From assembly GCA_009602735.1 (NCBI GenBank), contig WELA01001939.1, positions 959,742 through 1,023,741 of the forward strand: a stretch of DNA of 64,000 nt, written 5' to 3'. The notes under the pieces are model-generated. The model was not told where the DNA came from. It did not search any database and saw only the letters and a program-made list of their open reading frames with translations. Positions within the stretch are counted from its first letter, which is position 1. Each line of letters opens with the position of its first letter. Origin of the DNA: Mesotaenium endlicherianum (taxonomy: Eukaryota). Both the position numbers and the translations under genes were made by a program. Of the stretch, positions 35,898 to 64,000 are shown piece by piece.

Positions 35898-36236
35898 TCA
35901 TAAACACAATGCAGTTAGTGAAGTCATGATATTTTGCCGCTACTGAGTGCCCTTGATGAAGAGGAACGCGATCGGGAGAGGTCCTAGCGTGAAATACGTG
36001 GTGTGAGTGAATATACGGGAAAATTGAGTTAGAGAGAAAGTGAGTGTGAGCGCAGGTTGAGTGTGTAATATGGTTATCAGAGATTTTCCGGTTGATCCCG
36101 AAACATAATACCACTCCCTCCAACTTAATTTTAAAGGTGGGCTGCCTGTCACAACTGTCACTAACTGTCACATCCCCCTCCAACTTACATGGAGACAGGA
36201 CCTCCTGTCACCTTCCCAGGTCTACTGAAGGGACAA

Positions 36237-39200: not shown

Positions 39201-39238
39201 AGCAACGATTTTTGCAGCAGTAGGGTGCTCAGGAGGGC
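36237..39238 (-). pseudogene. A1 pol, RT-RH-INT-chromodomain part
   Basis: ORFs 38640-39263 and 36237-38603; FLDD motif, then a frameshift. Confidence 0.9.
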
Positions 39239-41059: not shown

Positions 41060-44000
41060 GCCAGGAGCCTACCACCCCAAGACCCACTTCACGAGAAGGC
41101 AACACGCCAAGTGAGGTGGAGACCCCCGTTGAAGACGACGTTCCAGCCCCAATGAGTTTGAGAGGTTACCTTGGAGGAGAGAAGGTCCACATCTTGGTGG
41201 ATAGCGGAGCTCAAGGCAACTTCATTGCTGCAGATTTTGCCACCAAGCACGGTATTACTATGCGAACTCTTGACCACGACGAGGAGATTATGATGCCCGA
41301 TGGATTCTCCTATACTACCCCTTCCAAGAAGACGTACCCCTTGGCACTCTCTATCAAGTCCTTCAAGGATAGAGTAGTGTTCTCCCCCATGCAATTGGGC
41401 AAGTACGACGTCATCCTAGGGACGCCTTGGTTGACCAAGCACAACCCCCAAGTTGATTGGAGGACCGGTACTATCAAGATCAAGAATGACATCACTTCAA
41501 GAATCTGTATTTTGCGCGCAATCCAGAATATCCAGACCCAAGACATCCAGAAGCCGGCACACGAGATACTATTGTCCGCCCTCCAACTCAAGAGACTTGT
41601 GAGGAAGGGACACGAGCTTCTTTTGGCCTTGATCACGCCAAAAGACATCAAGAAAGACATCGAGAGTCAAGAAGGCAGCCCCGTTCCCAAGGAGATACAA
41701 GAAGTCTTTGAGGACTACAAAGAAGTGTTCTCCCCGGAATTGCCCAAGGGCCTACCCCCCAAAAGATTCGTAGACCACAAGATAGAGTTGGAGCCCGGAA
41801 GCAAGCCCATCTCTCGGCCTACGTTCAAAATGTCATACACGGAGCTAGACGAAGTCAAGAAGCAAATCAAGGAGCTACTGGAGCATGGCTTCATTCGACC
41901 TAGCAAGTCGCCATTTGGAGCCCCGGTGCTATTTGTCAAGAAGAAAGATGGTACCTTGAGGATGTGTGTGGACTATCGCGCCCTCAACAAGATCACCATC
42001 AAGAATCGATACCCGCTGCCGCGCATGGATGAGCTCATGGACCGGCTGGTTGGAGCCAAGTACTTCACGAAGATTGACTTACGGAGCGGCTACCACCAGA
42101 TTCGCATCGCAGAACCGGACATAGAGAAGACGGCATTCAGGACAAGATATGGACATTTTGAGTTCATGGTCCTGCCATTTGGACTCACCAACGCGCCAGC
42201 AACTTTCATGACTATGATGAACACCATATTTCAGCCCATGTTGGACAGATTTGTGGTGGTATTCATCGATGACATCCTTATCTACAGCAAGACCCTTGAA
42301 GAGCATGCGAGACACTTGAAAGAAGTCCTTGAAGTATTGAAGCAAAACAAGCTGTTTGCGAAGGAGTCAAAATGCGAGTTTGCCAAACAAGAAGTGGAGT
42401 TCCTAGGTCTCCACGTGACTGCTGATGGCATCAAGATAGACCCCAAGAAGACCACGGTGGTGGAGGAATGGCCAACCCCCACGACCAAGAAAGAACTCCA
42501 GTCATTCTTGGGATTTGCCAATTGGTACAGAAAATTCATCCAAGGCTTCTCGCACATAGCAGCCCCCCTGACAGATCTACTCAAGAAGGACAGGCTATAT
42601 ACATGGACCGAGAAAGAGGAAGAGGCATTTCAAGAGTTAAAGCGAAGATTGACCACATCCCCGGTGCTCACACTCCCAAGTCCAAACCCAGATTGGCCCT
42701 TCCACGTCATCACCGATGCATCTTCCTATGCAATAGGAGCAATCCTGCTTCAAGACCAAGGCAAGGGACTGCAGCCCATCGCCTACGAGTCAAGGAAGCT
42801 AAATCCAGCCGAGCAAAATTATACAACCACGGAGCGAGAGGCATTGGCGATTGTACATGCCTTGAAGGTTTGGCGCTGCTACGTTGAAGGACGCAAAGTA
42901 CTGGTCACCACGGACCACGAGGCGTTAAAGCACCTCCAGACGCAGCCGTATCTCTCAAGGAGACAAGCAAGATGGAGCGGATACTTGCAACAATACAACA
43001 TCACGATTCAGTACCAGCCCGGCAAGACAAACCCGGCTGACCCCCTCTCAAGACTGCAATTAAATGCAGTGATGGTATCCCTGAAGACAGATCTGGAAGC
43101 TCGATTTTCAGCCGCCTATGAAAGAGACCCTTACTACAAGAACGGAGAAGCAGCCTTGGACCCATGCAAGAAGCAAGAAGGCAATTATTGGGTGAGGCAA
43201 GATACGGGCCAGAGATGTGTTCCTAATGACTTAGACCTCCGGCTCTTGCTTCTACGAGAAGCACACGACAACCCTCTTGGAGGACACTTTGGAATCCTAA
43301 GGACCACGGGCGTTCTAGCTAGGACTTATTGTTGGCCAGGCATGTCTAAGCAAGTCAAGGAGTACTGCAGGAGCTGTGACACATGCCAAAGAATCAAGCC
43401 ATCATCGCAAAAGGCGGGAGGACTCCTCCAACCACTACCAATCCCCGAAAGACAATGGACGGACATCTCAATGGACCTTATCGTGGACTTGCCCGTGACA
43501 CCTCGAGGCCATAATGCAATACTCACGGTGGTGGACAGACTTACCAAGATGGCTCATTTTATTCCCACGACGACTAAGGCTACAGCACCACAACTTGCAA
43601 GACTCATCTTTGACAACATCTTCCGACTCCATGGACTACCATCAAGAATTGTGTCAGATAGAGATCCAAGATTCACAAGCCATTTCTGGAAAAATCTCTT
43701 CAAGAACTTGGGTACATCGCTGGATATGTCTACTGCCTACCACCCACAATCAGATGGGCAAACCGAGCGTATGAATCGTACCCTAAAGACCTCTCTAAAG
43801 GCCTACGTGTCTACCCTCGAGCAAGACTGGGACATGTACTTGACCCCCCTCGAGTTTGCCTACAACAACACTACGCAGGCCTCTACCCAAGAGTCCCCAT
43901 TCTTCCTCAACTATGGCTTCCATCCGACCACGCCACTGAGCTTCACGGCTGGCCATGATGAAGTACCTGCAGCCACAGATTTTATGGAGACATTAGAAGC

Positions 44001-44646
44001 AGCCCTTACAGCAGCGAAGAAAGCTCTACAACACGCGCAAGATGCTCAAGCAAGAGTGGCGAACAGATCCAGAAGAGAAATTACGTACAGAGTGGGTGAC
44101 AACGTGTTACTATCATCCAAGAACATTTCCCTGAACAACAGGCCTGCCGGCAGCAAGTTCTCTCCCAAGTATTTGGGACCCTTCAAGATTATCCAGCAAG
44201 TCAACCCCGTTGCTTTCAAGCTAGAACTTCCCCAGACTATGCACATCGACCCCGTATTCCACGCTTCCCTCTTCAAGCCATATGTGCAACCCGACAACAA
44301 GTTCCCAGGACGTGTGACAACCCCACCAGCCCCAACAATAGTGGATGATCATTTGGAGTACGAAGTGGAAGACATAGTGGCTATGAGAAATTTCAGGAGA
44401 CAGCAGCAATACTTGATCAAGTGGAAAGGATATCCAGATTCGGAGAATAGTTGGGTGGCGGCGCACTACCTTGACAAAGTTCAGAGAAAGTTGAAGCGCT
44501 TCCATGCCGCCAACCCCCATCTTGGACCAGCCCCAAGTCTCTCTACTAAAAGCCCGAAGACTTCAGGGAGGCAGCCTGCCACCATCAAGAAGCAGCAGAA
44601 GACCCCTTGGAGGCAGCCTGCAAGAACCACAAAGAGGAAAAAATGA
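41038..44646 (+). CDS. Family B pol (PR-RT-RH-INT-chromodomain), intact, -1 frame relative to gag
   Basis: LVDSGA, FIDD, TDAS, HHCC zinc motif, VSDRD, GPF, chromodomain EYEVEDIV...YLIKWKGY; no internal stops. Confidence 0.95.
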
Positions 44647-45255
44647 CATTAGACACTCTTCTCTTCTTGCAGTTTCTGGACAGTAAACTAAAACTGCTAC
44701 TGGCAATAGTTCTCTTCATAATAAATTCTGAAAATTTACGTGGCTGTAGTCCATGAGTAGCCAGTCATTTAGAGTCCAAGTTTGCTCAATTTGGAGCACT
44801 GGTGAGAGAGATATGATGCTCTAAGTAGAAGGGGGTCAGGTTGCTGGCATTGTTAGGACAGAATATGCCTTCTGACATTGTGCCCTCCCCTGAACTTGGA
44901 ATGCTTTGAAACTCAAGACGCTGGTAGAACATCTTACAGCGCCCATTTTGAGACTTAGTTTGCAGAATTTAGAGAAGTATAGAAGGACTTATGATTTTCA
45001 GAAGTTTCTGCACAGATTTGGAGGAGTGCCTACTCTCTCAGCTCTCAACGACACTCCAGAAATGAGAATGCTCTCAAATTTGGTGACCCGGTAGAGTTCT
45101 CCGACGCGGTCCGTCTGGCACTCAAATTTTCAGATTTGGAGCAGTTCTGTGGCCGCTATAAATTTTTGAATTCGTGGCAGATTTTGGGCCAACTTGTACA
45201 ATTTTCTTTATCATTAAGGAGTAGGCTAGCCAATAAGGTCACACCACCTACGACC

Positions 45256-45385
45256 TTGCCTAGTCTACCTTACATGTGTAGCACCTGACTTGGCGCCTTT
45301 GACTAGTCCTCTTCACATGTGTGGCATCTGACTTGAAACTGTTGACTAGTTTGCTCCACATGTGTAAGACCTGACTTGACGCGCC
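45256..45385 (+). repeat. 43-bp tandem repeat x3 in the family B 3'UTR just before the PPT
   Basis: TTG(A/C)CTAGT...CACATGTGT...CTGACTTG units at 45256, 45299 and 45342. Confidence 0.8.
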
Positions 45386-46195
45386 GAGACGTCGCTTTTT
45401 CTATCGGGGGGGTGATGTAGTGATTTGAGTTATTATATATTAGTTTGCATATATTTTAATGTTTTCAAATATATTTGGAGTAGTATTGTGTGGAGTCAAG
45501 TGTGAATAGGTACTCTAGTAACTTGGTTCATGTCCTTTGAACCTTCCAAGGCATTTTCGAAGTTAGAGGAAAGACCTAGAAGAACTCCATGTGGCAAAAG
45601 TCAGATGTGCCATTTTTAGGTCAAAAGGACATGTGTACATTATTCTAGAAAGAGGTGGCAAGTTTTGGGATGTGTTGGGTGCCAACACATCAACACACAC
45701 CTTCCTAGAAATTACTTATGTAGCAAGTATATAAACAAGAGTTAGAACATAGAAAGACATTCCAGAATCACTCTTGTACTTGCCAAAATCTAGAAATATA
45801 TTAACTTTCAAGAAGCCATCTCTCTTTCAAAAAGCTACCACTTGTGTTCAGAGATCCTTGTCTTGAATAGATAAAGTATTCTGTTTTACTAAGTACTTTA
45901 TCAATCTGTTTCACTACAAGGGCTCCTGCAATCATGCAATGCAGTAGGATAGGGGGGACTGTGTTTTCCAGACTTTTGCATTGTTCTCCTGACTCAGCAA
46001 AGAAATGTTGGACATCAGGTGGAACAAGAGCATCCAGAGTGTGCACTCTCTGGACGTCTATATTGCTGATGGTCTCCTTTATCTGGTTGTCAGACATGCA
46101 TTGTGAATCCAGTTCAGCAGGACCCATAATACCTGCTACGAGGGCAGCTAGTGACGACTCATTATCTCTAGCATCCTCACAGTCAGTAGACTGGA

Positions 46196-47674
46196 TTACT
46201 GACTGTTGCTGTCTTTTAAAGGCTGGCCTTTTCTCTCGACCTTTGGGAGGTGCTTGACTGGACACTGCTCTCTGAAGTGACCTGGCTGCTGGCAATGGAA
46301 GCAAATTGATTTTGCTGAGGCTGGTCTCGGCTTAGTCCTACCACCACCTCTTCCATAGCCGCCTCGAGGGAAACCACTTCTACCTCTAGACTGTATGGCA
46401 TTATACTCATACTCATATTCATCACCCTGATCATCCTCAGCCTGGTCTCCTTCAAATGCATTGTAGGAACCATGGGGCTTTTTGACAATCTTAGACACCA
46501 AAGCATTACTCTGGCGCTTGTGATTGAACTGCTGCTGATCCCAGGCATCAGCATCTTGAATCAAGTCAGCCAGTTTCTCATACTTCTTCTCAGTGAAATG
46601 ACGAGAGACTTCGGATTTCGAGCCATACCTGAAGTATGCTATCCTATACCGTTCTGGCAAGTCTGGCTGCTTCATCATGTTCTCCTGGAACTTTTGAGCA
46701 AACTCAGCAACTGAAGTGGTCTGCTTCAGTGTCAGGGAGATCATCGCATAGATAGCTTTCTCCTGCTGATTGATGACATCAAACTTCTCATGCAACTTCT
46801 CGACAAACTCTACCCACGTAGGGTCACCGAGTTGCCGAGCCTTACGCTCTTCCTTCCAGTAAAGCCACCAGTCTGCGGCACTGCCTTTCAGTAGCGCACC
46901 GGTGTGCCTGACCTTCTCGTAATCTTGCAGTTCTGGGTAGTTCTCCAGCCACTGCTCAACATCCGCGAGAAACTTGATCAGGTAATATTTTTTGTTTCCC
47001 TCAAGATCATATTCCTGGGGAGGTTTCGGCTTGGGCTTACTAGGCCCTCGGCCACAACCACTAGTGGTTTGAGACCCCAGTTGGTCTCTGTCCCGCAGGA
47101 GAGACATTATGATTCTTTTGTCCTCCTGTTGGGACTGATACATGGTCGCAATTTGCGATTGCATTTGAACGAACAATGCTCCCAAGTCTACACTCTGGGG
47201 TGGTAGTCTAGCAAATGCAGCAGCAGCATTGGCATCTACTCGCTGAGTAGTGTCCTCAACAGTCCTTCTCGCTCCTGTAGCAGCAATTCCTGCCGCATTC
47301 AGCCGGTCACATATTTGACCTAGGGGTAAATTGAGTTGTACAGCAGGAGGTGGGTTCAGAACATTGGCCCTGGATGCCATAAGTTCTTCAACAGTGCGCT
47401 CGTCAGCTGGCTGTCTTTCCCTCCTTTCTGTATCTTCTGCGGCCTTTGCTAACTGTTCAGCTTCTAATCTGGCTCTCTCCTCCTCAGCTTGCTGTGCTGC
47501 GACTGCAGCAATAGCAGCTGCCTCATCTGCAGCTTCTCTAGCTGCAGTATTCGCCACTGCTTCAGAATAGGTACGGGTTCCCGCTACATGGCTTTCCGCC
47601 TGGTTTTTGACATTCTCGTTATCCTGGTTCTCCATGTCTCGGGAGTTGCTAGTTTGAGACCTTGTGCTTACCAT
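46196..47674 (-). CDS. A1 gag (open, 492 aa)
   Basis: MVSTRSQ... to CFHCQQPGHFREQC...SNSQ. Confidence 0.9.
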   Translation of the reverse strand: MVSTRSQTSNSRDMENQDNENVKNQAESHVAGTRTYSEAVANTAAREAADEAAAIAAVAAQQAEEERARLEAEQLAKAAEDTERRERQPADERTVEELMASRANVLNPPPAVQLNLPLGQICDRLNAAGIAATGARRTVEDTTQRVDANAAAAFARLPPQSVDLGALFVQMQSQIATMYQSQQEDKRIIMSLLRDRDQLGSQTTSGCGRGPSKPKPKPPQEYDLEGNKKYYLIKFLADVEQWLENYPELQDYEKVRHTGALLKGSAADWWLYWKEERKARQLGDPTWVEFVEKLHEKFDVINQQEKAIYAMISLTLKQTTSVAEFAQKFQENMMKQPDLPERYRIAYFRYGSKSEVSRHFTEKKYEKLADLIQDADAWDQQQFNHKRQSNALVSKIVKKPHGSYNAFEGDQAEDDQGDEYEYEYNAIQSRGRSGFPRGGYGRGGGRTKPRPASAKSICFHCQQPGHFREQCPVKHLPKVERKGQPLKDSNSQ

Positions 47675-48759
47675 ACAAAGAAGACTGTGATAACCGCTTC
47701 GATACCACTGAAATGAATCGACTTACCAAATAGGCGAGTAACAATTAATAAGGATCTTCATATCAGCAAGTAATCTTTGTGGTATTTTTCGCTTACTGCT
47801 TAAACGGCAAAGGACAACACACTAGCGGGGAATAATACACGTAAGTCAAATGCGAGTAAACTAGCATCAATAATGCAATCAGTATACTCATACATAAGCA
47901 AGGTTAGAAGACGGTGCGTATCAATGGCTTCTCGCCTTGGATTCAGATCTCTCTCAGTAAGCTGTACAAGAGAGTTGGCCTCGTTTCCAAATGCCGAACT
48001 CGAAAGCAATGCCTAGCATATGTTCATGGAATGAGTTTACTGTTCAACGGCTAGTGCGACGGCACCGCCTACCCGGGAGTTAACCACATTGTTAGGACCT
48101 CAGTTAACCAAATCCACCGCCATCTCCCATCATCCCGAATCGCCATCCATCATAGGGATGTCATCTGGCCATCCATCTAGCATACCACACTTAGATGCAT
48201 ATCGAGGCAGTTTGCTGCTACCGAGTACGGAAGTCAGCTGGCTGTCAAAGAATGAGTCAGCAAGCTGACTTAAGCTGACTTCAACCTGCTACTTCCGGCC
48301 GAGTCATTAAACTGATATTAAATATAAAGTCCAGCAGACTGATCATAAACTAGAGTTCAGCTGGCTGAACTTATTTAACTATATTATTTGAATGAATATC
48401 ATATCAACCAATATACTGATTCATTACAGCTCCCTCCCTCCTTATTCACTGTATCTTCTGCTACTCTCACGCAGGCCCAGGACGAGATTACGCACGAGCT
48501 CCTACGCCGGCGTCCACGGTCCGCCATCCCACCTGGGCCAGCTTCCCTCGTGACCCCAGCGGCTCCCACCAGTTGTCCACATGGGGCCCCCTGGACGTCT
48601 GCCTCGCGAGATCGTCTCCGTCAGCAGCCTCGACGTCGACGCCAGGTGGGTTGTCTCCTTTTGCCCCCTCTTTCACTCCTTCTCCATTGCAGGGCCTGTC
48701 CCCTCTCAGGTCAGTTCCCTCTTCCTCCTTCCTCACCCCTCTCGAACGGCAACGTGCAT

Positions 48760-49120
48760 TGCCTCGTAATGTCATGCTCGACAACCAACATGCTTGTCTC
48801 CTTCTGGCCGGTCTAGCCCCTCATGTGGTCATTCTTGACACGGGTGCTCAGCCAGTCCTTTTGGGTGCAGTCATGTGTCGACACCTTAACATCACCGCAA
48901 CCAATCTCGAGCCTTGTCCAAACCCCGTCTCTACCGCCATGTCTTCTTTAAATTAAAATGCATATCAAACCCGTCGCCGCATCCCTATCACCCTCAATGC
49001 CCACACTCCCGCCGCTGTCACCCTTTACGCCCAATGCATGGTCACCAAATCCACCGCTTATGATATCCTTCTCGGTCAGGAATTGAACTTCCTCATTCGG
49101 CTCACTATTGACTTGTGGCA
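48760..49120 (+). pseudogene. Aspartic protease of element X
   Basis: VVILDTGAQPVLLG catalytic motif and downstream YDILLG in the same frame, with one stop at 48954. Confidence 0.8.
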
Positions 49121-49523
49121 AGGGATTGCTACGTATCGGGTTGACTTCGAGTCTCTGGGCCACCATCTGGGTTACCTTCCCCTCCTTCTTACACATACCC
49201 CTTCTACTCTCGTGTGCTCTGTGGCCACGGCTTTCACAGTCACTGTCCATGATCTTAGTCCTAGTGATCTCACCGATCCTACATACCTCCTTCTCCATGA
49301 CGTTGCACCTGACGCCCTTCCTGTTTGTTTAGCTCAAACTACCCTTCTTTCACCGCTGCCCTCCTACCCTATCCCTCCTGCTACCCTTCAGCAGATCCAC
49401 ACAGCCTTGCACTACCCCTCTCCTCCCATGGTTTCTCCCCCAGCCCCTCCCCCTTCACCTCTTACATCCCCTCCCCCGGTCGTTAACACCCCGCCCATCC
49501 GTTGGCTGCCTCCCCCCGCAGGG

Positions 49524-50381
49524 ATTACCGTGCTGGACTTGTTTGCCGGGGTGTCTTCTACTGTTGCGGGTCTTCTGCAGAGTGGCCACCGTATTGCCCA
49601 CTACTACTACTGTGATGTGGACCTCGTGGCCCAGCTGGCGAGTCAAACACACCTGGGTGCTTTACACCTCGCCTTCCCCACTTTACTCCCTACGACTTCC
49701 TATCACACCGTCTATTCCGCATTGCCTCAGGATATTCGTCTCCTCCACAGAGATCACTTGCTCGCTATCGGACCAGTTCATCTTTGCGTCGGCGGTTGGG
49801 AGTGTCAGGGGCATTCTAGGGCTGGGCATGGGGGAGGGCTGGCTGACCCGCGTTCCCAATCATTTTTCGAGATGATATGCGTCTTAGGCCTCCTCCAGAC
49901 TTCTCAGTCCTCGCCACCTGCATACTTACTCGAAAACGTGAACTCCGCGGATGATGATCGTGCTCACATCCGGGCTGACTTCTTCACCATCACATCCATT
50001 CTGGGGCCCGACGTTACTCTCGACGCCGCAGCCGTGGGGTCTTACGCTCATCGTTCGCGTGCTTACTGGCAAAACCTTGTCCCTTCCACTACCCTTTAGC
50101 CTATCTTTCACAACATACACTCGCATCCCACTCGCATCACCGTCACCTCCATCTTGGCCCCGCACCGTTGCCCCATGGAAGTCAGTCGCGCTGACCACGC
50201 TTCTTTCAGTCAAGTCAACTTCCCGGATGACCCTCGGGCCGCATTCCCCACTCTGGTCAGCCGTCCCCACTCTTTTGCATTCGTAACTATGGGCCTGGCA
50301 TGTTATTTGAATCTCCCACTCACCAGTATGTGGAGCCCTTCGCGTCCAAACGTAAGCTCATTCTGAGTTTTATTCCCCACG
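49524..50381 (+). pseudogene. DNMT3-like C5-cytosine methyltransferase domain of element X, motifs I-IX
   Basis: I TVLDLFAG; II YYYCD; III QDIR; IV GGWECQGHS; VI YLLENV; VIII AHRSRAYWQNL; after a stop (50097) and a frameshift, IX-like EPFASKRKLILSFIPH. Confidence 0.9.
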
Positions 50382-51215
50382 TGAAATGAATCGACTTACC
50401 AAATAGGCGATTAACAATTAATAAAGATCTTTATATCAGCAAGTAATCTTTATGGTATTTTCCGTTAACTGGTTTAACGGCAAAGGACAACACACTAGCA
50501 GTGAATAATACTCATCAGTCAAATGCGAGTAAACTAGCATCAATAATGCAAATCAGTAAACTCATACATAAGCAAGGTTAGAAGACAGTGCGTATCAATG
50601 GCTTCTCGCCTTGGATTTGGATCTCTCTCAGTAAGTTGTACAAGAGAGTTGGCCTCGTTTCCGAATGCCGAACTCGAGAGCAATGCCTAGCATATGTACA
50701 TGGAATGAGTTTTACTGTTCAACGATCAGTGCGATGGCACCGCCTACCCGGGAGTTAACCACGTTGGTAGGACCTCGGTTAACCAAATCCACCGCCATCT
50801 CCCATCATCCCGAATTGCCATCCATCATAGGGATGTCATCTGGCCATTCATCTAGCCTACCACACTTAAATGCATATGAGGCAGTTCGCTGCTACCGAGT
50901 ACGGAAGTCAGCTAACTGTCAAAGAATGTGTCAGCAAGCTGACTTAAGTTGACTTCAGCCTGCTGCATCCGGCTGAGTCATTAAACTGTTATTAAATATA
51001 AAGTCCAACAAATTGATTATTTAATTAAAGTTCAACAGGCTGAACATAATTTACTATTACATCTAAATGAATATTATATCTACTAATATACTGATTCATT
51101 ACAATCCCTCTAACTTAACTTGTTGTCGCCTCGACAACATTAAGCTTCAAGAGTTGTTATTCAGCAAACTGGACCTGACCCGCCTTTCCCAGTGACTGCT
51201 CCTTCAGCCTTTTGC

Positions 51216-52892
51216 CTAGGGGGTTGTTGCTGGGGCTTCAGGATCAGGAGACGGAGATCTGGACCTGGATCTGGACAGCCCTCTAGGTCTGTCAGCTGGC
51301 CTTCTAAAGAACCCCGTTTGCTCTAAAGTTGGACCGCGAGGAGAACGAAGGATGGTAGCCTGCTCTTCACCCACTTGGGTGTTGATCCCCACATAGACAG
51401 GCATTCCAGTAGGATGCTGAAACACATTGGCAAGAGGTACATGCCCCTGAGCGAAGGGAGAGGCCGGCATACCTCTGGCCACCCCGCGGGTCCCTCTTCT
51501 GGCACCCCTGTCCTCTGGGGATTTCTGCCTGTGTCTGCTGCCAAGTACAGTCAAATCAGCTTCTTCCCCTGCTTGGGCAGGAGGGCTGGGGGAGCGAGTG
51601 CGGGGTCCAGTTGCCTCCATGACAGGGATCACGTTCCAAATACCTGATCGTGGTTCTTTAGGAAGTGCCCCTGCCTGCCCCTGGGTCTCCTGAGTACCAG
51701 CTGCTGATGCTTCTCCTCTGCCCTGTTCTTCTTCCTCATCCTCCTCATCCTCCTCCTCGGAGAGAGTAGGAGTCTCGTCCACTAAATCGTCCTGCTCCCT
51801 AGTGGACATGGAGTAGTCTACCGACCTCCCTTTCTTAGGGCGCGCTGGAGGTTGCTTGGCCTTCAGCCTGCTGATATCTATCCGGCCTGCATTCTTTGCC
51901 CATTTGACAAAGGCATGCTTTCCCTTAGAGAAGTAGTCTCTTCCCCTCCTCCTATGCTCCTTGGTCTCGGCATTCATATTGCTCAGGCATCCATTCAGCC
52001 TGGGGTCCCAAGGGGCAATGTGAGGTGGTAGGATGAGATAGCCGTCTAGGCCATAGTGGAAGTCATCCGGTTGGGCTCGGTCACACTCCTGCTTCTTATT
52101 TGTGACGGTCATCCACCTCCAGTCTGTTGGCTGCTGGTAGTACTGGGGTCCGTGCTCAACCTTCCTCAGTTTACACGGGAACCAATGGGGAGAGAACATC
52201 TGCTGTCCTGCTTCCCTGGCCAAGTACTCCCAGCTCCTTCTCTCAACTTCATTGTAAGCTGGCAAGAGTGTGAGGTAGAATACCGTATCCTTAAAGCTAT
52301 CGGACCGCATGCTCACCATCCGGATGAGTCTCTGATCTCCCACTATTCCCGGTATGGGGACCGGCTTGTCCTCTAAATCATCTGCAAGGTAGCGGGCCTG
52401 CTCTGCTGTATAGCCCACCATCTTGGCATAATCTTCGTAGAGGACCACACCAGTGTGTGTCTCGATGTACCTCTCCAGTGCTGCAGCTCCTTCCCCTTGT
52501 AGCAGTGTTGTCTGTTCCAGCTTGTTGATTTCCTGGGCTGCCAGCAATGCTTCCTTCAAGTTATCAGAGTTTTGGCCACCCACCACAGTATATCTGTAAG
52601 TGGCCAAGCTCTTCTGTCTGTCCGCTTCAATCTTTTTCCATCTCTCCTCCTCTGCCGCTGCTGCTTCCTCTTATTGTTTCTTCTGTCTCTCCTCCTCAGC
52701 TTTTCTGAGGTTTTCTGCTTCCTCATCCTTCTTCCTCTGTGCCTCTTCTGCCGCCTCTTGTTGTCTGCGGACCCTTTCTTGTTCTCTCCTGGTGAGGGAC
52801 GTCGCCGCTAGCTCCTTCTGGTATTGCTCCATTGTCCTCCTGGCTTCTTCTGCCTTGCGCTTTCTGTCCTCCTTTTGTGTGGTGGGAGCCAT
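51216..52892 (-). pseudogene. A3 ORF3, divergent variant, about 558 aa with one premature stop (52671)
   Basis: ORFs 52671-52913 and 51216-52607 are in the same frame; MAPTTQKEDRKRKAEEARR start. Confidence 0.8.
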
Positions 52893-53284
52893 TCTGCACA
52901 TGTGACCAGGCACAAGTTAGTAGGATATTGACCTTTGTCATAGGAGTTGCAGGAGAGAGTAAGTTCATATTACTATGGTATATTCGTTCCTGTTTACCTT
53001 ACAGGGTGATTGCTAGGAGTTAACGTAGTTGCGGTGCGCCAGACATAAACGTATGAATGTGTTTTCAGGTGGGTCAAGTGATGTATTGCTGTGCGAGGCC
53101 CTTATTCGTTCAGCCAAAGGTGCTTTATGTGGGCCAGGCTGTCCCCTATGTCACTATGCTGACACTTAGGATTCACATAACCGTCCCTTTCGCACTCTCG
53201 CACACTAACTGTCATATATTTTCCCCTCCAACTTAAATGGAGACAGGACCTCCTGTCACCTTCCCGTGTCAACTGAAATGACTG

Positions 53285-56200
53285 TTAGGGAGGTGCTCCA
53301 GCCGCCCGAAGGTGGAACCGTTTCAACGCCCCTTTGGCATTAGTCAAATGGTCCTTAAATTCCCAAGTGTCCCTAGAGGCATCGTAACCTTTCCATCGAA
53401 TGAGATACTTCATGACATATTTAGACGATCGACGGACCGAGCGGGCGTCTAAAATTTCATCGACCTCATATTCTTCAGGATCGCCGTCCCGGACAGCGGG
53501 GACCGGTCCCGGTTGGACAGGTAACCGACCTGTGAACAGTGTATCACCTTTGATGTATGGTTCCAGGAAGGAGACATTAAAGACAGGGTGACCCATATAT
53601 TCGGCTGACATATTCAGTTTGTAAGCATTCTCACCGACACGACGTACCACCGAATATGGACCAACCCAGACAGGACCAAGCTTTTTCTTGACCACGCCCG
53701 GGAGGTACAGGTGCTGAGAATGCAGTTTGACTAAATCGCCCTTGGAAAATGTCAGCGCCCGGCGGTGTTGATTAGCGTATTTTTGTTGGTTTTCTTGGGC
53801 TTTGTGCAGGTTTTGTTGGACATTTGACAGGGTGTCAGCAAACTCCTGAGTTAACTGGAGGGAGACCGGGTTGTCAATCCCTTCAGGGTCAGTTAAAGAC
53901 TCCCCCAGTACATCTAAAGGAGACTTAGGAACTCTACCCAGGCTGAGTTCAAAAGGAGTCTTGCCCGTTGACGCGTGCACCGCACTGTTGACCGCAAACT
54001 GAATTTGAGGCAACAGGTCATCCCAATTATCTTGTTTTTGGTTAATATATGCTCTCAGCACCTCCTGCAGAACTCGGTTAGATCTTTCAGTCTGCCCATC
54101 AATTTGAGGGTGGTTGGCTGTGCTGAGAAGCTGTTTGACTCCCATTAACCCCATTAAAGCTCTCCAGAACTTAGAGGTGAATTTTGAGTCTCTGTCTGAG
54201 ATGATATTAGAAGGGAGCCCATGTTGGCATACTACATGGTTGTAGAACTGCCTCGCTGTTTCGAGTGCAGTTACTTTGACAGTTGTGGGGATAAAAATGA
54301 CCATTTTTGTCAATTTATCAACGACTACCAGTATTGAATCAGCCCATTGGCAGTTCTTGGTAGTGAGATCATCCAGTCCATGGATATCGTTTCCCAGCGT
54401 CCAGCTGGGATGGGCAGTGGTTGCAAGAGACCTCTTGGTGGTGTGTGCCGAGACTTATTTCTGTGACACTGATCGCAGGACTGACATATTTCAAGACCTC
54501 CCGGGGTAACCCCGCCCAATGATAATGTGTTGCCAGTTTGCCAACAGTTTTGGACTGCCCCAAATGTCCACCCAGGAGACTGTCACGCGCTTGACTCAGT
54601 AAGAGAGACCTTATTTCCAAGTTATTAGGAATGACCAGCGTCAGCCTGCCTGAAGTTGTTTCAGTCACCCAGACGCCTCTCTTAAGCTTATACCCGAGTG
54701 CAGTAGCACGACACTCACCAATAGTGGGGTTGGGCTCAAATGTTGGGTCAGAAAGGTAGGCTTTCCTAAGTTGTTCTAGGAAGGACTTTTTCACCTTTAG
54801 TGAAGTGAGTGCACACAGGACTTTATCTACAGCATGCTGACTAAAGTTCCTTTCTTGCAAGTCAGGTCTTCTAGAGAGTGCATCGGCAGGATTCAACTTC
54901 CCTGGTTTGTAGTCGATCTGGACTTGGAACTGCTCCAGCATCTGGCTCCAGCGGTTCTCCCTCCTCGACAGCTTGGACTTCTTCTGAAAGTGGGTCAGAG
55001 CTAGATGATCTGTAATCACCTTAAAAGCTTTACCATGTAAGTATGCTCTCCACTGTTTGAGTACATGAATGATAGCTAGCAGCTCTTTATCATGCACTGA
55101 GTAATTAATCTCCGCTGGATTAAATTTCATAGACTCATACAACACAGGATGCCACTCCTGCCGTACCTTACCATCCTTTGTGGTTTTGTCAGCAGGCTGC
55201 AACAAAATAGCACCCATGGCAAAATCAGAGGCATCAGTAACCACCTGCACCGGTTTGCTGGGGTCATACACGGCTAGCACTGGGGCAGAACAAAGGGCAT
55301 CTTTAAGGGTCTGGAAGGCAGCCTGCTGCTCTTCCCCCCACACATACCCGATGTCTTTCTTAGTAAGGTCAGTCAGTTTACTGGCCTTTGTGGAATAATT
55401 CTCAATAAATCTCCTATAGTAGTTAGCCAACCCGAGGAAGGATCTAACTTCAGAGACAGACTGTGGTACTGGCCAGTCCCTTATGGTCTGGACTTTCTTA
55501 GGATCCACACTGATGCCCTCTTTACTGACAACGTGGCCTAAGAATTCAATACTTTCCTTAAAGAAATCACACTTGCTCATTTTAGCATACAAGTGATTTT
55601 TCCGCAGAGTGTCCAGCACTTTCTTTAAGTGTTCAGTGTGCTGAGCTTCATCTTTAGAGAAAATTAAAATATCATCCAGGAAAACTTGCACAAACTTATC
55701 CAAATAAGGTCTGAAAATGTCATTCATAGCACCCATAAAGGTAGCAGGAGCATTAGTCAGTCCAAATGGCATCACGTTGAACTCATAGTGTCCATAACGT
55801 GTGCGGAAAGCAGTCTTGTGTTCATCCCCCTCAGCAATTCTGATTTGATGATAACCACTCTTGAGATCTATCTTACTGAACACCTTAGCGCCAGACAGGG
55901 TATCAAGCAAGTCCTCGATTCTGGGTAAAGCATACTTGTTCTTTACTGTAATTCTGTTCAGGGCTCTGTAATCCACACACATCCGCATACTGCCATCCTT
56001 TTTCTTAACAAATAGGATAGGTGCGCCGTACGGTGATTTACTGGGAGAAATGTAACCATTTTCCTCCAGCTCTGCAATCTGTGTTTTCAACTCCTCGCTC
56101 TCCAAATAAGACAAGCCATAAGTGCGTTGCCAGGGTGGCTGGCTACCAGGTAATAGATCAATCCTATGATCTACTTCCCTTTTAGGGGGTAGTCCTGGAG

Positions 56201-57095
56201 GCATGTTAAACACATCAGTGTACTGAGCAACAATTTTTGCAGCAGTAGGGTGCTCCGGAGGGCTTACCTTTTTCTCAACCACTTCTTCAGGTTGAGGAGG
56301 TACCTCTCTTAGCAGCAGACAGAACATTCTGTCTTCCTTCTGGTTCCAGCTTTTGACGAACTCCATTGCATTCAGCAACTTGCATCCTTCTGGAAGCCTC
56401 TTCTTTTCCTTCATTTGCCATCCACACAGGACAAGAGGAAGAGCACTGGTGGGTGCCAAGTCAGTCTGCCCATCACTGGCTCCTCTCACTTTAACTGTAC
56501 CTCTGCTCCAACACACTTCAGCTTGATGTCTATTAAGCCAGGACCTGCCTAGCACGAGATCATAAAAGCCAGTGTTGAGTACCTCAAATGTAAGCGTTTC
56601 AGTTAGAACTGCAATGCCAGAACCTAACTGGACCTCAATAGGCTTGGTTATAACTCCTCCCGGGATACTTGAGGCATCTCCAAGGAATATTTTTCTATTC
56701 CCTTGGGTGACAGTAGGCAGCCTTAGCCGCTTAACTAAGTCCTTGTGAATAAAAGTATGTGACGCCCCTCCGTCAACAAATGCCCTCACCTTCCTACCTG
56801 CAATCATGCAATGCAGTAGGATAGGGGGGACTGTCTTTTCCTGACTTTCGCATTGTTCTCCTGACGTAGCAAAGAAATGTTGGACATCAGGTGGAACAAG
56901 AGCATCCAGAGTGTGCACTCTCTGGACGTCTATATTACTGATGGTCTCCTTTATCTGTTTGTCAGGCATGCATAGTGAATCCAGTTCAGCAGGACCCATA
57001 ATACCTGCTACGAGGGCAGCTAGTGACGACTCACTATCTCTAGCATCCTCACAGTCAGTAGACTGGATTACTGACTGTTGCTGTCTTTTAAAGGC
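53285..57095 (-). pseudogene. A3 pol (PR-RT-RH-INT-chromodomain), frameshifted in integrase
   Basis: ORFs 54369-56999 and 53285-54313. Confidence 0.92.
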
Positions 57096-58578
57096 TGGTC
57101 TTTTCTCTCGACCTTAGGCAGGTGCTTGACCGGACACTGTTCTCTGTAGTGGCCTTTCTGCTGACAATGGTAGCAAGTAGATTTTGCTGAGGCTGGTCTC
57201 GGCTTAGTCCTACCACCACCCCTTCCATAGCCACCTCGAGAGGGACCACCTCTACCTCTAGACTGAATAGCATTGTACTCATACTCATATTCATCACCCT
57301 GATTATCCTCAGCCTGGTCTCCTTCAATTGCATTGTAGGAACCGTGGGGCTTTTTGACAATCTTAGACACCAAAGCGTTACTCTGGCGCTTGTGATTGAA
57401 CTGCTGCTGATCCCAAGCGTCAGCATCCTGGATCAAGTCAGCCAGTTTCTCATACTTTTCTCAGCGAAATGACCAGAGACTTCGGATTTCAAGCCATACT
57501 TGAAGTATGCTATCCTATACCGTTCTGGCAAGTCTGGCTGCTTCAACATGTTCTCCTGGAACTTTTCAGCAAACTCAGCAACTGAAGTGGTCTGCTTCAG
57601 TGTCAGGGAGATCATCGCATAGATAGCTTTCTCCTGCTGGTTGATGACATCAAACTTCTCATGCAACTTCTCGACAAACTCTACCCACGTAGGGTCACCG
57701 AGTTGCCGAGCCTTACGCTCTCTTTTCCAGTAAAGCCACCAGTCTGCGGCACTGCCTTTCAGTAGCGCACCGGTGTGCCTGACCTTCTCGTAATCTTGCA
57801 GTTCTGGATAGTTCTCCAGCAACTGCTCAACATCAGCGAGAAACTTGATCAGGTAGTATGTTCTGTTACCCTCAGGATCATATTCCTGGGGAGGTTTCGG
57901 CTTGGGCTTACTAGGCCCCCGGCCACCACCACTAGTGGTTTGAGACCCCAATTGGTCTCTGTCCCGCAGGAGAGACATTATGATTCTTTTGTCCTCCTGT
58001 TGGGACTGATACATGGTCGCCATTTGCGACTGCATTTGAACGAATAATGCTCCCAAGTCTACACAATGGGGTGGTAGTCTAGCAAATGCAGCAGCAGCAT
58101 TGGCATCTACTCGTTGAGTAGTGTCCTCAACAGTCCCTCTCGCTCCTGCAGCAGCAATTCCTGCCGCATTCAGCCGGTCACGTATTTGACCTAGGGGTAC
58201 ATTGAGTTGTACAGCAGGAGGTGGGTTCGGAACATTGGCCCTTGATGCCATAAGTTCCTCGACAGTGCGCCAGTCAGCTGGCTGTCTTTCCCTCCTTTCT
58301 GTATCTTTAGCGGCCTTTGCTAATTTTTCAGCTTCTAGCCTGGCTCTCTCCTCCTCAGCTTGCTGTGCTGTGACTGCGGCAATAGCAGCTGCCTCATCTG
58401 CAGCCTCTCTAGCTGCAGTATCTGCCACTGCTTCAGAATAGGTACGGGTTCCCGCTACATGGCTTTCCGCCTGGTTTTGGACATTCTCGTTATCCTGGTT
58501 CTCCATGTCTCGTGAGTTGCTAGTTTGAGACCTCGTCCTTACCATANAGTTGCTAGTTTGAGACCTCGTCCTTACCAT
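57068..58578 (-). pseudogene. A3 gag with a frameshift near 57455
   Basis: ORFs 57433-58578 and 57068-57436. Confidence 0.9.
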
Positions 58579-59335
58579 ACAATGAAGATTGTGATAACCG
58601 CTCCGATACCACTGAAATGAATCGACTTACCAAATAGGCGATTAACAATTAATAAAGATCTTTATATCAGCAAGTAATCTTTATGGTATTTTCCGTTAAC
58701 TGGTTTAACGGCAAAGAACAACACACTAGCAGTGAATAATACTCGTCTGTCAAATGCGAGTAAACTAGCATCAATGATGCAAATCAGTAAACTCATACAT
58801 AAGCAAGGTTAGAAGACAGTGCGTATCAATGGCTTCTCGCGTTGGATTCGGATCTCTCTCGGTAAGCTGTACAAGAGAGTTGGCCTCGTTTCCGAATGCC
58901 GAACTCGAGAGCAATGCCTAGCATATGTACATGGAATGAGTTTTACTGTTCAACGGTCAGTGCGATGGCATCGCCTACCCGAGAGTTAACCACGTTGGTA
59001 GGACCTCGGTTAACCAAATCCACCGCCATCTCCCATCATTCCGAATTGCCATCCATCATAGGGATGTCATCTGGCCATTCATCTAGCCTACCACACTTGA
59101 ATGCATATCGAGGCAGTTCGCTGCTACCGAGTACGGAAGTCAGCTGGCTGTCAAAGAATGTGTCAGCAAGCTGACCTAAGTTGACTTCAGCCTGCTGCAT
59201 CCGGCTGAGTCATTAAACTGTTATTAAATATAAAGTCCAGCAAACTGATTATTTAACTAAAGTTCAACAGGCTGAACATTATTTACTATTACATCTAAAT
59301 GAATACTAAGTCAAGCAATATACTGATTCATTACA

Positions 59336-59440
59336 CCACGCCACTGCCTCTCTTGCCTTATCCCCCTCTCAACGTTGTCGACTCCTCGGTCGAGTTATGG
59401 ACATTCATGCTCTCACCTTGCTTTTCTCTGTCCTCCCTGT
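59336..59440 (+). pseudogene. C-terminal end (motif X) of the element X DNMT domain
   Basis: After the TSD it reads ATASLALSPSQRCRLLGRVMDIHALTLLF, comparable to DNMT3 motif X (RQRLLGRSW). Confidence 0.8.
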
Positions 59441-59608
59441 CCTGAACGCACGGCTTCCTGATCCTCTCCTTCACACTCCAGCCTACCCCTTGCCTGCTTT
59501 CGGCTGGGGGGGGGGAGTTCCGTCGGAATTTTCACGCCTGCATAGCAGTTACAGCCATCAGGTCCACCTCCCGACCCTTCTGCATCCAAACTTAAGGACG
59601 AGTGGGAC

Positions 59609-61811
59609 TTGGGCACACAGTTAACTAAGGAGGAAACCCTACAGTTCACTCAAATGCTGGAACGGAATGAGGCTTGTTTTGCACGTTCAGTCATGGATCT
59701 AGGACGGTGTATAATCTCTCAATTCACCATTGATCTTACTAGCAAAGGATCGGTTTTTTTGAGGGATTATTGTCACGCTAAGGTCAAACAAGATATTATG
59801 CGGGAGAAAGTCACAGAGTTGTTAAAGGTGGATATGATTGAGGAGTCAATGTCGGATTTTGCAGCCCCACTGTTATGCCTGCTAAGAAGGACGCAATGGG
59901 TAATTATACGGAAAAACGTATGTGTGGAGATTATCGGGGACTCAACCCTATTACAAAATTGGATCGCTACCCTATGCCCATGCCTGAGGATATCTTTGAT
60001 TTCCTTGAGGACGCCTGCGTCTTCAGTGTGTTCGACCTGCGGCAGGGGTTTAACCAAATCCTCATTGATCCTAAGGATAAACATAAGACAGCTTTTTGGG
60101 CAAATCGTCGTTTGTATCAGTGGAAAGTCATGCCGTTTGGGTTAAAGAACGCACCTGCCCGTTTCCAGCGCATTATGGACCGAGTGCTTAGTGGGTTGCC
60201 TTTTGCTTGTTGTCACATTGATGATGTGCTCATTTTTAGCCGTACCGTAGAGGAACACTTGACACATGTTGAACGGGTCCTACAATGCTTGAGGTATGGG
60301 GGTTTGAAGTGTCATCCAGGGAAATGTAAGATTGCGACCCTTTTCGTTCCTTACCTGGGCCACCATATCGTCCCTGAAGGGTTAAAGTCGCAGCAAGTTA
60401 AGGTCGATGCTATCCGACGACTACCAGTTCCGACGGATGTGTCTAGGTTGAGGGCCTACATGGGGATCACGGGGTATTATCGTCGTTTTGCCCTGATTTT
60501 AGTGCGATTGCTGCCCCTTTGAATGAACTCCTGAAGAAGGATGTGCCTTGGGAATGGACTGGGGAACGTCAAGTAGCTTTTGACAAATTGAAGGATATCC
60601 TATTCTCTTCTCCTATCTTGCGTAGACCAAACTACAGTAAGCCGTTTTCCCTTCACACTGATTGCAGTCATCTCGATTTGGGGGCCGTTCTTGCTCAGGA
60701 GGATGAGGAAAGTCATGAATATGTTGTTGCGTATGCCAGTCGTAGTAAAAACTATACCGTATGAAAGGGAATGCTTGGCTGCAGTATGGGCTGTAGTGCA
60801 CTTTTGTCCATACCTCTATGGTACTCATTTCACACTCATCACTAATCACCAACCCCTTAAATGGCTGATGACTAAGCAAAAACTCACGGGTAAACACGCA
60901 CGTTGGGCTCTCATACTTCAAGAGTACGATTTCACCATTGAACATAAGGCTGGGTTAAGTAACCAGGATGCGGATGGCCTTAGCCGCAACCCTAACCCCT
61001 TGGACGTTGATCTCACCGGGGCTCGTTTTGCCTCTAGCCAGCAAGTACATATCCTGCCAGCCTGGCATGCTGCCTATTATCTCGGTCTTCTTTCTACTCC
61101 TATTGGCGCATGTGCGGTCAGCCCGGTTGTCCTCCCGCATGCAGTGCCTGATGTGTGGTCTGATTCTGCTATGATGGAGTATTTGCGCACTCATACCTGG
61201 TCTTCTCCCCTCTCGTCGCGTGAACAAGACCGAGTTTTGCATCGTTGTGTTTGATATTACTGGTATGAGGGGACGTTGTAACGTGTCTTCCCTCACCACA
61301 CCCGAGTCATTCCACCCCCTCCTGAACGCATACCTCTTATTCGTAAAATCCATAAAGTGTCTGGGCAATTCTGAGTTAAACGCACGAGTTCTCTTCTGCA
61401 AACCGAGTTTTGGTGGGAGGGGTTGGTCGCTCAAGTCAACGATTTTGTTCGTTCATGCACGTCGTGTGACCGCGTTAAGAACACTTTCAATGCACTCGCC
61501 TCCGTTCTCAATCCTCTTCCCCTCCGTGGGCTTTTCTAACGATGGTCACTGGATTTGGCTGGGCCGTTACCCCTCTCTAAGTGTGGGATGCGCTACGTCC
61601 TTGTGATGATTGAGCACCTCACCAAGTGGATCGAGTTGGTGAGTATTCCTGATAAGTCCAGTGCCTACATTGCTAGAGCGTTCACGGAGCGAGTCCTATG
61701 TCGCTATGAGGCGTGTGCTGAGGTCCTCACTGATCAAGGGTCGGAGTTTCAGGGTGATTTGGCCGAGTTGCTTGATAAGTCATTTATTGATCATTGCACT
61801 ACCTCTCGAGA
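59609..61811 (+). pseudogene. RT, RNase H and partial integrase of element X, multiply frameshifted
   Basis: RMCGDYRGLN, MPFGLKNAPA, HIDD; LHTDCS, YASRS, ERECLAAVWAV; integrase WIELV...VLTDQGSEF, cut at 61812. Confidence 0.9.
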
Positions 61812-64000
61812 TGTAATGAATCAGTATATTGGTTGACCTAGTATTCATTTAAATAATACAATTAAATAAGTTCAGCCTGCTGAACTCTAGTTAATGATCA
61901 GTCTGCTGGACTTTATATTTACTATCAGTTTAATGACTCAGCCGGAAGCAGCAGGCTGATGTCAGCTTTAGTCAGCTTGCTGACACATTCTTTGACAGCC
62001 AGCTGACTTCCGTACTCGGTAGCAGCGAACTGCCTCGATATGCATCTAAGTGTGGTATGCTAGATGAATGGCCAGATGATATCCCTATGATGGATGGCGA
62101 TTCGGGATGATGGGAGATGGCGGTGGATTTGGTTAACCGAGGTCCTACCAACGTGGTTAACTCCCGGGTAGGCGGTGCCATCGCACTGACCGTTGAACAG
62201 TAAACTCATTCCATGTACATATGCTAGGCATTGCTCTCGAGTTCGGCATTCCGAAACAAGGCCAGCTCTCTTGTACAGCTGACTGCGAGAGATCTGAATC
62301 CAAGGCGAGAAACCATTGATACGCACTGTCTTCTAACCTTGCTTATGTATGAGTTTACTGATTTGCATTATTGATGCTGGTTTACTAGCATTTGACTTAC
62401 GAGTATCACTCCCTGCTAACGTGTTGTCCTTTGCCGTTTAACCAGTTAAAGAAAAATACCATAAAGATTACTTGCTGATATAAAGATCTCTATTAATTGT
62501 TCATCGCCTATTTGGTATGTCGATTCATTTCAGTGGTATCGGAGCGGTTATCACAATCTTCATTGTATGGTAAGGACAAGGTCTCAAACTAGCAACTCAC
62601 GAGACATGGAGAACCAGGATAACGAGAATGTCAAAAACTAGGCGGAAAGCCATGTAGCGGGAACCCGTACCTATTCTGAAGCAGTGGCAGATACTGCAGC
62701 TAGAGAGGCTGCAGATGAGGCAGCTGCTATTGCCGCAGTCGCAGCACAGCAAGCTGAGGAGGAGAGAGCCAGATTAGAAGCTGAACAAGTAGCAAAGGCC
62801 GCTGAAGATACAGAAAGGAGGGAAGGACAGCCAGCTGACGAGCGCACTGTTGAAGAACTTATGGCATCAAGGGCCAATGTTCTGAACCCACCTCCTGCTG
62901 TACAACTCAATGTACCCCTAGGTCAAATACGTGACCGGCTGAATGCGGCAGGAATTGCTGCTGCAGGAGCGAGAGGGACTGTTGAGGACACTACTCAGCG
63001 AGTAGATGCCAATGCTGCTGCTGCATTTGCTAGACTACCACCCCAGAGTGTAGACTTGGGAGCATTGTTCGTTCAAATGCAGTCGCAAATGGCGACCATG
63101 TATCAGTCCCAACAGGAGGACAAAAGAATCATAATGTCTCTCCTGCGGGACAGAGACCAATTGGGGTCTCAAACCACTAGTGGTGGTGGCCGGGGGCCTA
63201 GTAAGCCCAAGCCGAAACCTCCCCAGGAATATGATCCTGAGGGTAACAGAACATACTACCTGATCAAGTTTCTCGCTGATGTTNGGATGTTGAGCAGTGG
63301 CTCGAGAACTATCCAGAACTGCAAGATTACGAGAAGGTCAGGCACACCGGTGCGCTACTGAAAGGCAGTGCCGCAGACTGGTGGCTTTACTGGAAGGGAG
63401 AGCGTAAGGCTCGGCAACTCGGTGACCCTACGTGGGTAGAGTTTGTCGAGAAGTTGCATGAGAAGTTTGATGTCATCAACCAGCAGGAGAAAGCTATCTA
63501 TGCGATGATCTCCCTGACACTGAAGCAGACCACTTCAGTTGCTGAGTTTGCTCAAAAGTTCCAGGAGAACATGTTGAAGCAGCCAGACTTGCCAGAACGG
63601 TATAGGATAGCATACTTCACGTATGGCTTGAAATCCGAGGTCTCTGGTCATTTTGCTGAGAAAAAGTATGAGAAACTGGCTGACTTGATCCAGGATGCTG
63701 ACGCCTGGGATCAGCAGCAGTTCAATCACAAGCGCCAGAGTAATGCTTTGGTGTCTAAGATTGTCAAAAAGCCCCACGGTTCCTACAATGCAGTTGAAGG
63801 AGACCAGGCTGAGGATAATCAGGGTGATGAATATGAGTATGAGTATAATGCCATTCAGTCTAGAGGTAGANCATACAGTCTAGAGGTAGAGGTGGTTTCC
63901 CTCGAGGCGGCTATGGAAGAGGTGGTGGTAGGACTAAGCCGAGACCAGCCTCAGCAAAATCGATTTGCTTCCATTGCCACCAGCCAGGTCACTTCAGAGA
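61812..64000 (+). mobile_element. Chromovirus family A copy A4 (5' LTR 61812-62532, PBS, gag from 62567 with TAG at 62639); runs off the window
   Basis: 721-bp TG...CA LTR, GTGGTATCGGAGCGG, gag homologous to A1-A3; predicted TSD CGAGA (61807-61811). Confidence 0.92.

Follow-up and report, generated by a model that had tools for sequence, protein, structure and literature searches.

A decayed Ty3/Gypsy retrotransposon with a DNMT3-like methyltransferase domain between protease and reverse transcriptase in the alga Mesotaenium endlicherianum

The 64,000-nucleotide window analysed here (Mesotaenium endlicherianum, assembly GCA_009602735.1, contig WELA01001939.1, positions 959,742 to 1,023,741 of the forward strand) is a retrotransposon nest adjoining an RPS3 gene, and it contains what is almost certainly a decayed non-chromovirus Ty3/Gypsy retrotransposon with a DNMT3-like C5-methyltransferase (DNMT) between its protease (PR) and reverse transcriptase (RT). 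This copy is dead, having stops, frameshifts, a CHIDD motif in the RT and three insertions. The family is multi-copy in the host, and many of its diverged copies have the DNMT. No introns and no Ns were found in the parts of the element, which are listed below together with the insertions that cut it; RH stands for RNase H, INT for integrase, LTR for long terminal repeat and ORF for open reading frame.

The element and its methyltransferase domain

20113..20124, plus strand: likely 5' terminus, the start of repeat A (TGTCGTGCCCGT); repeat A begins likewise in the relatives L001, L003 and L006, and the junction motif of L002 matches too
22033..24905, plus strand: remains of gag and of the gag-pol linker, including a CCHC knuckle at 23545-23586 (knuckle signature; weak tblastn match to relatives' Gag)
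24906..48428, minus strand: insertion 1, a chromovirus in which other elements are nested; target duplication GCTCC at 24901-05/48429-33
48744..49290, plus strand: aspartic protease, LDTGA at 48834-48848, stop at 48954 (tblastn with the L003 ORF, E 7e-25, and with P0005, E 3e-10)
49509..50381, plus strand: DNMT3-like C5-methyltransferase with motifs I-VIII, the region for target recognition and motif IX in degenerate form (PF00145, E 3e-5 to 8e-6; relatives' hidden Markov model; best PDB matches DNMT3C/A/B)
50382..59335, minus strand: insertion 2, a chromovirus (gag, PR, RT, RH, INT, SH3, chromo) with LTRs 96.4% alike; target duplication CCACG at 50377-81/59336-40
59341..59441, plus strand: C-terminal part of the DNMT, holding motif X, RLLGRVMD at 59379-59402 (model positions 294-328, E 6e-5; continues the P0063 alignment across the insertion)
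59506..59516, plus strand: G-run downstream of the DNMT (like placement in L003 11093, L006 6056 and L005 546)
59842..60519, plus strand: RT, active-site motif CHIDD at 60211-60225 (RVT_1, E 4e-29; 67% identical to P0063)
60486..61030, plus strand: RH, frameshifted (RT_RNaseH, E 4e-18; tblastn)
61135..61811, plus strand: DDE integrase with an H2C2 remnant and its core, broken by four stops and interrupted by insertion 3 (rve, E 4e-10; tblastn)
61812..64000, plus strand: insertion 3, a chromovirus LTR and gag, running off the window and cutting the integrase at 61812

An earlier reading of this DNA from the sequence alone had proposed a Gypsy element with a DNMT3-like domain between PR and RT, and Pfam, profile and PDB comparisons support that proposal. 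The motifs lie where that reading had placed them, at DLFAG 49536, GGWECQ 49791-49808, LENV 49929-49940, AHRSRAYWQNL 50046-50078 and RLLGRVMD 59379-59402, so that I, IV, VI, VIII and X of its motif set stand, except for motif IX, which is degenerate in this copy. The linear order of the motifs from I to X indicates a DNMT3-related domain that is intronless and unrearranged inside Pol. A match to PF00145 was obtained, and the claim that ORF callers miss the split domain turned out to be wrong, because the ORF 48957-50096 alone passes Pfam DNA_methylase with 24.1 bits against a cut-off of 22 and the DNMT is thus visible to ORF-based scans. A family profile built from 17 relatives, with the window row left out, matched 3 of the 2505 six-frame segments of the window, at 48957-50096 (model positions 4-200, E 4e-71), 50100-50363 (210-265, E 8e-11) and 59310-59621 (294-328, E 6e-5). 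These matches follow in order across insertion 2, and together with the exact CCACG duplication they bear out the earlier suggestion that this insertion (A3 in the sequence-only reading) splits the domain. When the DNMT was read through with X at the stop, frameshift and insertion, its residues 1-317 aligned with P0063, the closest intact relative (41.5%, E 3e-72).

Compared to the PDB, the family profile ranked DNMT3A first (1e-23), then DRM2-type chains (6e-13), HhaI (8e-10) and DNMT2 (8e-8), which places DNMT3A ahead of the DRM-type chains by 10 orders of magnitude in this ranking. Structure prediction was made for the domain of P0063, not for the window copy, and the AlphaFold model (pLDDT, the predicted local distance difference test, 92.8) had DNMT3B/3A as top matches, with template modelling (TM) scores of 0.70-0.72. 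No variation was seen in C99, E142, N143 and R184 across all 18 aligned rows, this Arg being the second of motif VIII, and the Cys, ENV and RxR are retained in the window copy as in its relatives, the Pro before the Cys being replaced by Glu. The kept catalytic Cys and the Glu had already been pointed out from the sequence, and both were confirmed. Among 27 representatives, motif IV is WECQ in 17 and of the PC form in 6 (4 being without coverage), and the Glu for Pro (WEC) is therefore the norm of the family and not a sign of decay.

The order PR-RT-RH-INT in Pol, with a DDE integrase, identifies the element as Ty3/Gypsy, and an assignment to DIRS was rejected due to the rve integrase (E 4e-10) in the place of a tyrosine recombinase. 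The protease gave a weak Pfam match as well (gag-asp_proteas, E 0.036). No Pfam match was found in the gag region 22033-24905, which has weak tblastn similarity to relatives' Gag (E 0.002-0.07), and the knuckle at 23545-23586, CxxC..H....C[FW]xLHP, has the same signature in P0001/P0024/P0033.

As had been noticed in the sequence-only reading, the protease and motifs I-VIII of the DNMT are in one shared frame, with the stop at 48954 between them, and the copy is dead: stops are found at 48954, 50097, 61252, 61279, 61372 and 61537, there are several frameshifts, and all three insertions were recovered. The interior of the DNMT is broken, besides by the insertion, by the stop at 50097 and a frameshift near 50281. 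Since other host contigs differ from the window copy at several of the break positions, the decay belongs to this copy.

The three chromovirus insertions are younger than the element they interrupt, and exact 5-bp target duplications are in view for two of them. All three have the same 720-bp LTR, from a family that encodes SH3 and chromo domains, and the paired LTRs of insertions 1 and 2 are mutual best matches among six LTR copies (95.8% and 96.4%); the six copies compared are 91-96% alike. A second chromovirus family was seen at 39239-45918, with 503-bp LTRs 98.6% alike and the target duplication AGGGC; its ORFs for gag and pol are open.

Relatives, copies in the host and element ends

The search with the DNMT gave 19 proteins and the search with the RT 65, with no Klebsormidium-labelled sequence among the matches of either. 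In the RT tree of 71 rows, from which partial RTs, later cluster members and seven near-duplicates were left out and which has a long-branch warning for P0057, the window RT pairs with P0063 (100/92), and both belong to a clade of 56 rows (100/100) that is separate from the nested chromoviral RTs. Membership in the chromoviruses was rejected on this separate placement and on the relatives ending in a PHD finger, not a chromodomain. P0063 is the nearest relative of the window element for both DNMT and RT, although the full DNMT tree is poorly resolved at its base and no starred set in it includes the window row.

It had been suggested earlier that RT relatives without a DNMT would make this case a one-off insertion. 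Among the 27 clade members with at least 100 residues before the RT, 12 show DNMT sequence, including all eight of those with at least 250 residues (4 of these 8 being in the profile training set), and the remaining 15 have at most 214 residues there; RTs of the same lineage thus carry the DNMT wherever the sequence is long enough. The annotated ORFs of many relatives start about 100 residues ahead of the RT. The full order, Gag-PR-DNMT-RT-RH-INT-PHD, is seen in P0024, which ends at the PHD finger; PR-DNMT-RT is found also in L001, L003 and L006, and DNMT-RT in P0063, P0081, P0088 and Closterium proteins. A PHD finger follows the integrase throughout the clade, at a position that is off the window in this copy. 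Named hosts of the relatives are Mesostigma viride (PR-DNMT, the RT being outside the record) and Closterium (DNMT-RT), with RT-only relatives in Coleochaete and the liverwort Calypogeia. L001 and L003 have the order PR-DNMT-RT-RH-INT-PHD and are presumably of bryophyte origin, their RTs being 78% identical to that of Calypogeia.

Identities in DNMT and RT co-vary between elements (Mantel rho 0.64 for 15 elements and 0.60 for the 10 left after thinning close pairs, p<0.001), which shows co-inheritance and not function, because shared ancestry makes the pairs non-independent. Purifying selection acts on the DNMT in the related family L001/L003/L004/L006, where the ratio of nonsynonymous to synonymous substitution rates (dN/dS) is 0.21-0.39 for the DNMT and 0.29-0.66 for RT, RH and INT. 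In a metagenome scan, 6 of the best 80 loci clearly belonged to the family. Among the best 80 of 176 viral-contig loci there was no close viral donor, the methyltransferases there being distant (best E 1e-12, 32% identity).

A second domain order, RT-RH-DNMT-INT-PHD, forms its own branch in both the DNMT and the RT trees, and in a larger DNMT tree this branch also includes P0013, which has the first order. In this sister lineage (P0003, P0004/P0033, P0018 and L002 1400-7480), the order RT-RH-DNMT3-INT-PHD is followed by a C-terminal domain of about 240 amino acids. The model of that domain (pLDDT 79.7, 5 rows) matches class I methyltransferases dependent on S-adenosylmethionine (SAM); the tied top rows include N6-adenine enzymes, namely METTL5 (Z 11.5, root-mean-square deviation 4.3, 148 aligned), type I HsdM (Z 11.0) and M.TaqI (Z 10.8). 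The Pfam match to MethyltransfD12 is weak (E 0.18, 3 of 5 rows) and the NPPY-type motif degenerate. On this modelled fold, P0003/P0033/L002 are possibly a dual-methyltransferase element of a kind outside the text of the EpiLTR preprint (bioRxiv 10.64898/2026.05.21.726589). In both domain orders a G-run is present 50-140 nt 3' of the DNMT, and it may serve as a central purine tract or as a site of frameshifting.

Copies in the host were sought in contigs from two DNA runs of one sample at ≥80% identity, and the contig counts are not copy numbers: 435 and 424 contigs fell on PR-DNMT, most of them below 95% identity, and 788 and 816 on RT-INT. The DNMT and PR have summed contig depths of the same order. 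From the RNA runs X7, X10 and X13 (6-24% of each read), 4, 43, 2 and 24 reads mapped, too few to gauge expression, and because none reaches 95% identity they come from diverged relatives and not from this copy. A few RNA reads (at most 10 deep in X13; 43 in X10) cover the motif X region at 59397-59452 and a part of the protease at 48954-49050.

The element had been given the span 48429..61811, which proved too short, as it includes the zinc knuckle at 23545-23586, likely begins at 20113 and has its 3' end off the window. The terminal motif TGTCGTGCCCGT at 20113 is a single match in the window, with 0.05 expected by chance, a figure that is generous because the pattern was written after the site was seen. 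The site coincides with a break in a transposase-like ORF, and it is likely, judging from the motif, that the 5' end of the element lies there. No terminal repeat partner for the 5' region was found within the window, as expected with the 3' end outside. Split repeats of the form A-coding-B-A-B were seen in two of the four related loci examined (L001 and L006); L003 has the start of A and one B only, and L002 the junction motif. In these relatives, A starts with TGTCATG, B ends with CAYGACA or near it, a G-tract stands ahead of B1, and the B-A junction is CA, two bases, TG. The split repeats are at L001 8084-8728 and L006 11175-11824, and their junction resembles a retroviral circle junction; the junction motif occurs also at L002 9315, although the RT of L002 is only about 41% identical.

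Possible roles of the methyltransferase

The reading we favour, and hold to be moderately probable, is that the window copy is a dead member of a multi-copy family, in whose live relatives the DNMT is likely active and likely methylates the new cDNA in the particle before integration. We consider it quite probable that the DNMT is an active enzyme in live relatives, and for cDNA as its main substrate the chances seem about even. Made as part of Pol and packaged with the RNA, the DNMT would act on double-stranded cDNA with SAM and its invariant Cys, ENV and RxR residues, so that the new copy would bear a host-like mark when it enters the genome. In relatives the integrase has a PHD finger, which may read histone tails at the target and guide integration. 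In split-repeat (A-coding-B-A-B) replication, plus-strand priming would fall to the G-rich tract immediately ahead of B1, and both integrase ends would be templated by the B-A junction inside the element (CA, two bases, TG). De novo CG methylation in yeast by a DIRS-borne DNMT3 has been reported in a paper that also proposed cDNA methylation (PMC5890265).

Several observations weigh against an active, cDNA-methylating enzyme. The element has an observed/expected (o/e) CpG ratio of 0.75-0.88, compared to 0.43-0.62 in the neighbouring chromoviruses and 0.54 in RPS3 (one window), which is the opposite of the prediction, because heavy CG self-methylation predicts depletion; it lends no support to the self-methylation suggested in the sequence-only reading. 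According to PMC5890265, the DNMT of KnitGypsy gave no methylation in yeast, a result that its authors call inconclusive, and activity is demonstrated in that account for no Gypsy-borne DNMT, only for the DIRS enzyme. The Glu of motif IV stands where DNMT3A has Pro. Selection was measured in a related family and not in the host's own copies, and four relatives of one RT subclade (P0082, P0093, P0102 and P0104) have no DNMT tail in the 191-214 residues before their RT, so that this subclade may have lost the DNMT or manage without it.

Some of these points would also fit a DNMT that is kept for a non-catalytic job, such as binding cDNA or SAM or serving the host DNMT3 as a DNMT3L-like partner or a decoy, with WEC as the mark of lost or altered chemistry. 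Pro has given way to Glu in 17 of 27 representatives, no yeast activity is reported for KnitGypsy (PMC5890265) and the element shows no CpG depletion. However, in sequences with about 35-45% overall identity the catalytic Cys, ENV and Arg do not vary, 6 of the 27 family members keep PC, and the predicted structure of P0063 keeps the full fold, and we consider this explanation unlikely, though not negligible. The DNMT might instead be an active enzyme that the integrase's PHD finger directs to the insertion site and the new provirus, during integration or later, and that possibly works in the CHH context like moss DNMT3b. The PHD finger after the integrase throughout the clade, the DNMT directly before the integrase in the sister lineage, the de novo methylation of both CG and CHH by moss PpDNMT3b (PMC6453930) and a high CpG content that fits a non-CG preference are in line with this, but here the DNMT sits between PR and RT, far from the integrase, and would probably be cleaved off, and we regard a role at the insertion site as unlikely. 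That no single host contig spans the whole stretch would agree with an assembly chimera, or with a host DNMT3 fragment captured just once, but either is extremely improbable: it is refuted by homologues with the same PR-DNMT-RT order (P0024, L001, L003 and L006), by DNMT-RT in P0063, P0081, P0088 and Closterium proteins, by parts free of introns and Ns with exact target duplications, and by host contig depth over the DNMT about equal to that over PR.

Genomic surroundings and known systems

Upstream of the element, the window contains one host gene:

10158..16029, plus strand: RPS3 gene, six exons (all matched by the protein jgi/Mesen1/3724 at 95-100%, the last one at 100%)

The label Mesen1 is read as Mesotaenium endlicherianum, so that RPS3 points to a zygnematophyte host and not to a fern. 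Closterium matches the final RPS3 exon at 75%, and a near-perfect 200-bp tandem array lies within an RPS3 intron at 11373-12737. A pair of inverted repeats at 1196-1945 and 7633-8382 (750 nt, 99% complementary) flanks old LTR remnants and is probably a DNA transposon. The transposase-like ORF fragment at 19629-20112, a Harbinger/HARBI1-like candidate, gave a weak Pfam match to a helix-turn-helix (E 0.024) and is broken where the DNMT element seems to begin. In the element's 5' region there is a GCAGCAGCTGA-type repeat with a 15-nt period at 21486-21926, where a 170-amino-acid minus-strand ORF had no Pfam match.

The window copy itself is dead and ordinary as DNA. That a transposon bears an enzyme normally used to silence transposons calls for an explanation. 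Mesotaenium, which is sequenced, cultured, covered by public RNA data and part of the group of algae nearest to land plants, offers a system for testing cDNA methylation and for dating the capture.

This kind of element has already been published, as KnitGypsy-Dnmt3 of Klebsormidium nitens (PMC5890265), and the link to de Mendoza 2018 (the same paper) drawn in the sequence-only reading holds. By its published description, KnitGypsy shares with the present element a Gypsy Pol with an intronless DNMT3-related domain, purifying selection (here in related loci) and a charophyte host. KnitGypsy is described with DIRS-like repeats, a layout that we saw in the relatives L001 and L006. The host class differs, being Zygnematophyceae here, and the capture, which that paper treats as an event of the K. 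nitens lineage, is to be set beside relatives in Mesostigma, Closterium and bryophyte-like contigs. SymbioDIRS-Dnmt3 of Symbiodinium, from the same source, resembles the present family in a DNMT3 inside Pol, in A-coding-B-A-B repeats and in two domain orders, but has a tyrosine recombinase, in contrast to the DDE integrase and Gypsy RT found here.

The EpiLTRs or DAM-LTRs (bioRxiv 10.64898/2026.05.21.726589) are likewise LTR retrotransposons with DNA methyltransferases and a histone reader. Their DNMTs are described as sister to DNMT4 and occur with DAM and a chromodomain; the DNMT here is DNMT3-like by comparison with DNMT3, DRM-type, HhaI and DNMT2 chains of the PDB, and the full-length relative P0024 ends at a PHD finger (the 3' end of the window copy being off the window). 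According to the text of that preprint, the streptophyte Gypsy-DNMT3 is a separate capture and DAM-LTRs are absent from Streptophyta. The catalytic domains of human DNMT3A/3B/3C and moss PpDNMT3b have the same fold, motif order, ENV, HRxRxxWxNL and LLGR as the present domain, which differs from them in about 21% identity, WEC for SPC, an insertion after motif II and no PWWP/ADD. Phygy and Selgy (Neumann 2019, PMC6317226), compared by description only, are also non-chromovirus Gypsy elements of non-seed plants; the main text of that paper mentions no methyltransferase or PHD, and a link between Selgy and PHD was not borne out in it.

Streptophyte DNMT3 retrotransposons are mentioned in general terms in the available text of PMC12344493 and of the EpiLTR preprint. 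In the open literature we found no paper on such an element in Mesotaenium, ferns, Sphagnum or liverworts, though supplements of earlier papers may list Mesotaenium, and none on a Gypsy element with split direct repeats. The present analysis adds the host in the Zygnematophyceae, the relatives in Mesostigma and Closterium, the split repeats in relatives, the terminal motif for the likely 5' end, and the sister lineage with its DNMT behind RNase H and a second methyltransferase fold. We tentatively suggest, at somewhat less than even chances, that KnitGypsy is a member of an ancient Gypsy lineage whose single capture of DNMT3 came before the divergence of Mesostigma and the land-plant line, and in which the WEC loop and the PHD-tipped integrase were kept through the Zygnematophyceae into the bryophytes. 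Such a lineage would have split repeats yet a DDE integrase, and its sister branch, with the DNMT behind RNase H and an adenine-type methyltransferase fold, would be a third dual-methyltransferase kind. If the lineage does span the streptophytes, the DNMT would have been under selection throughout the history of the group, which would argue for a real function of the DNMT.

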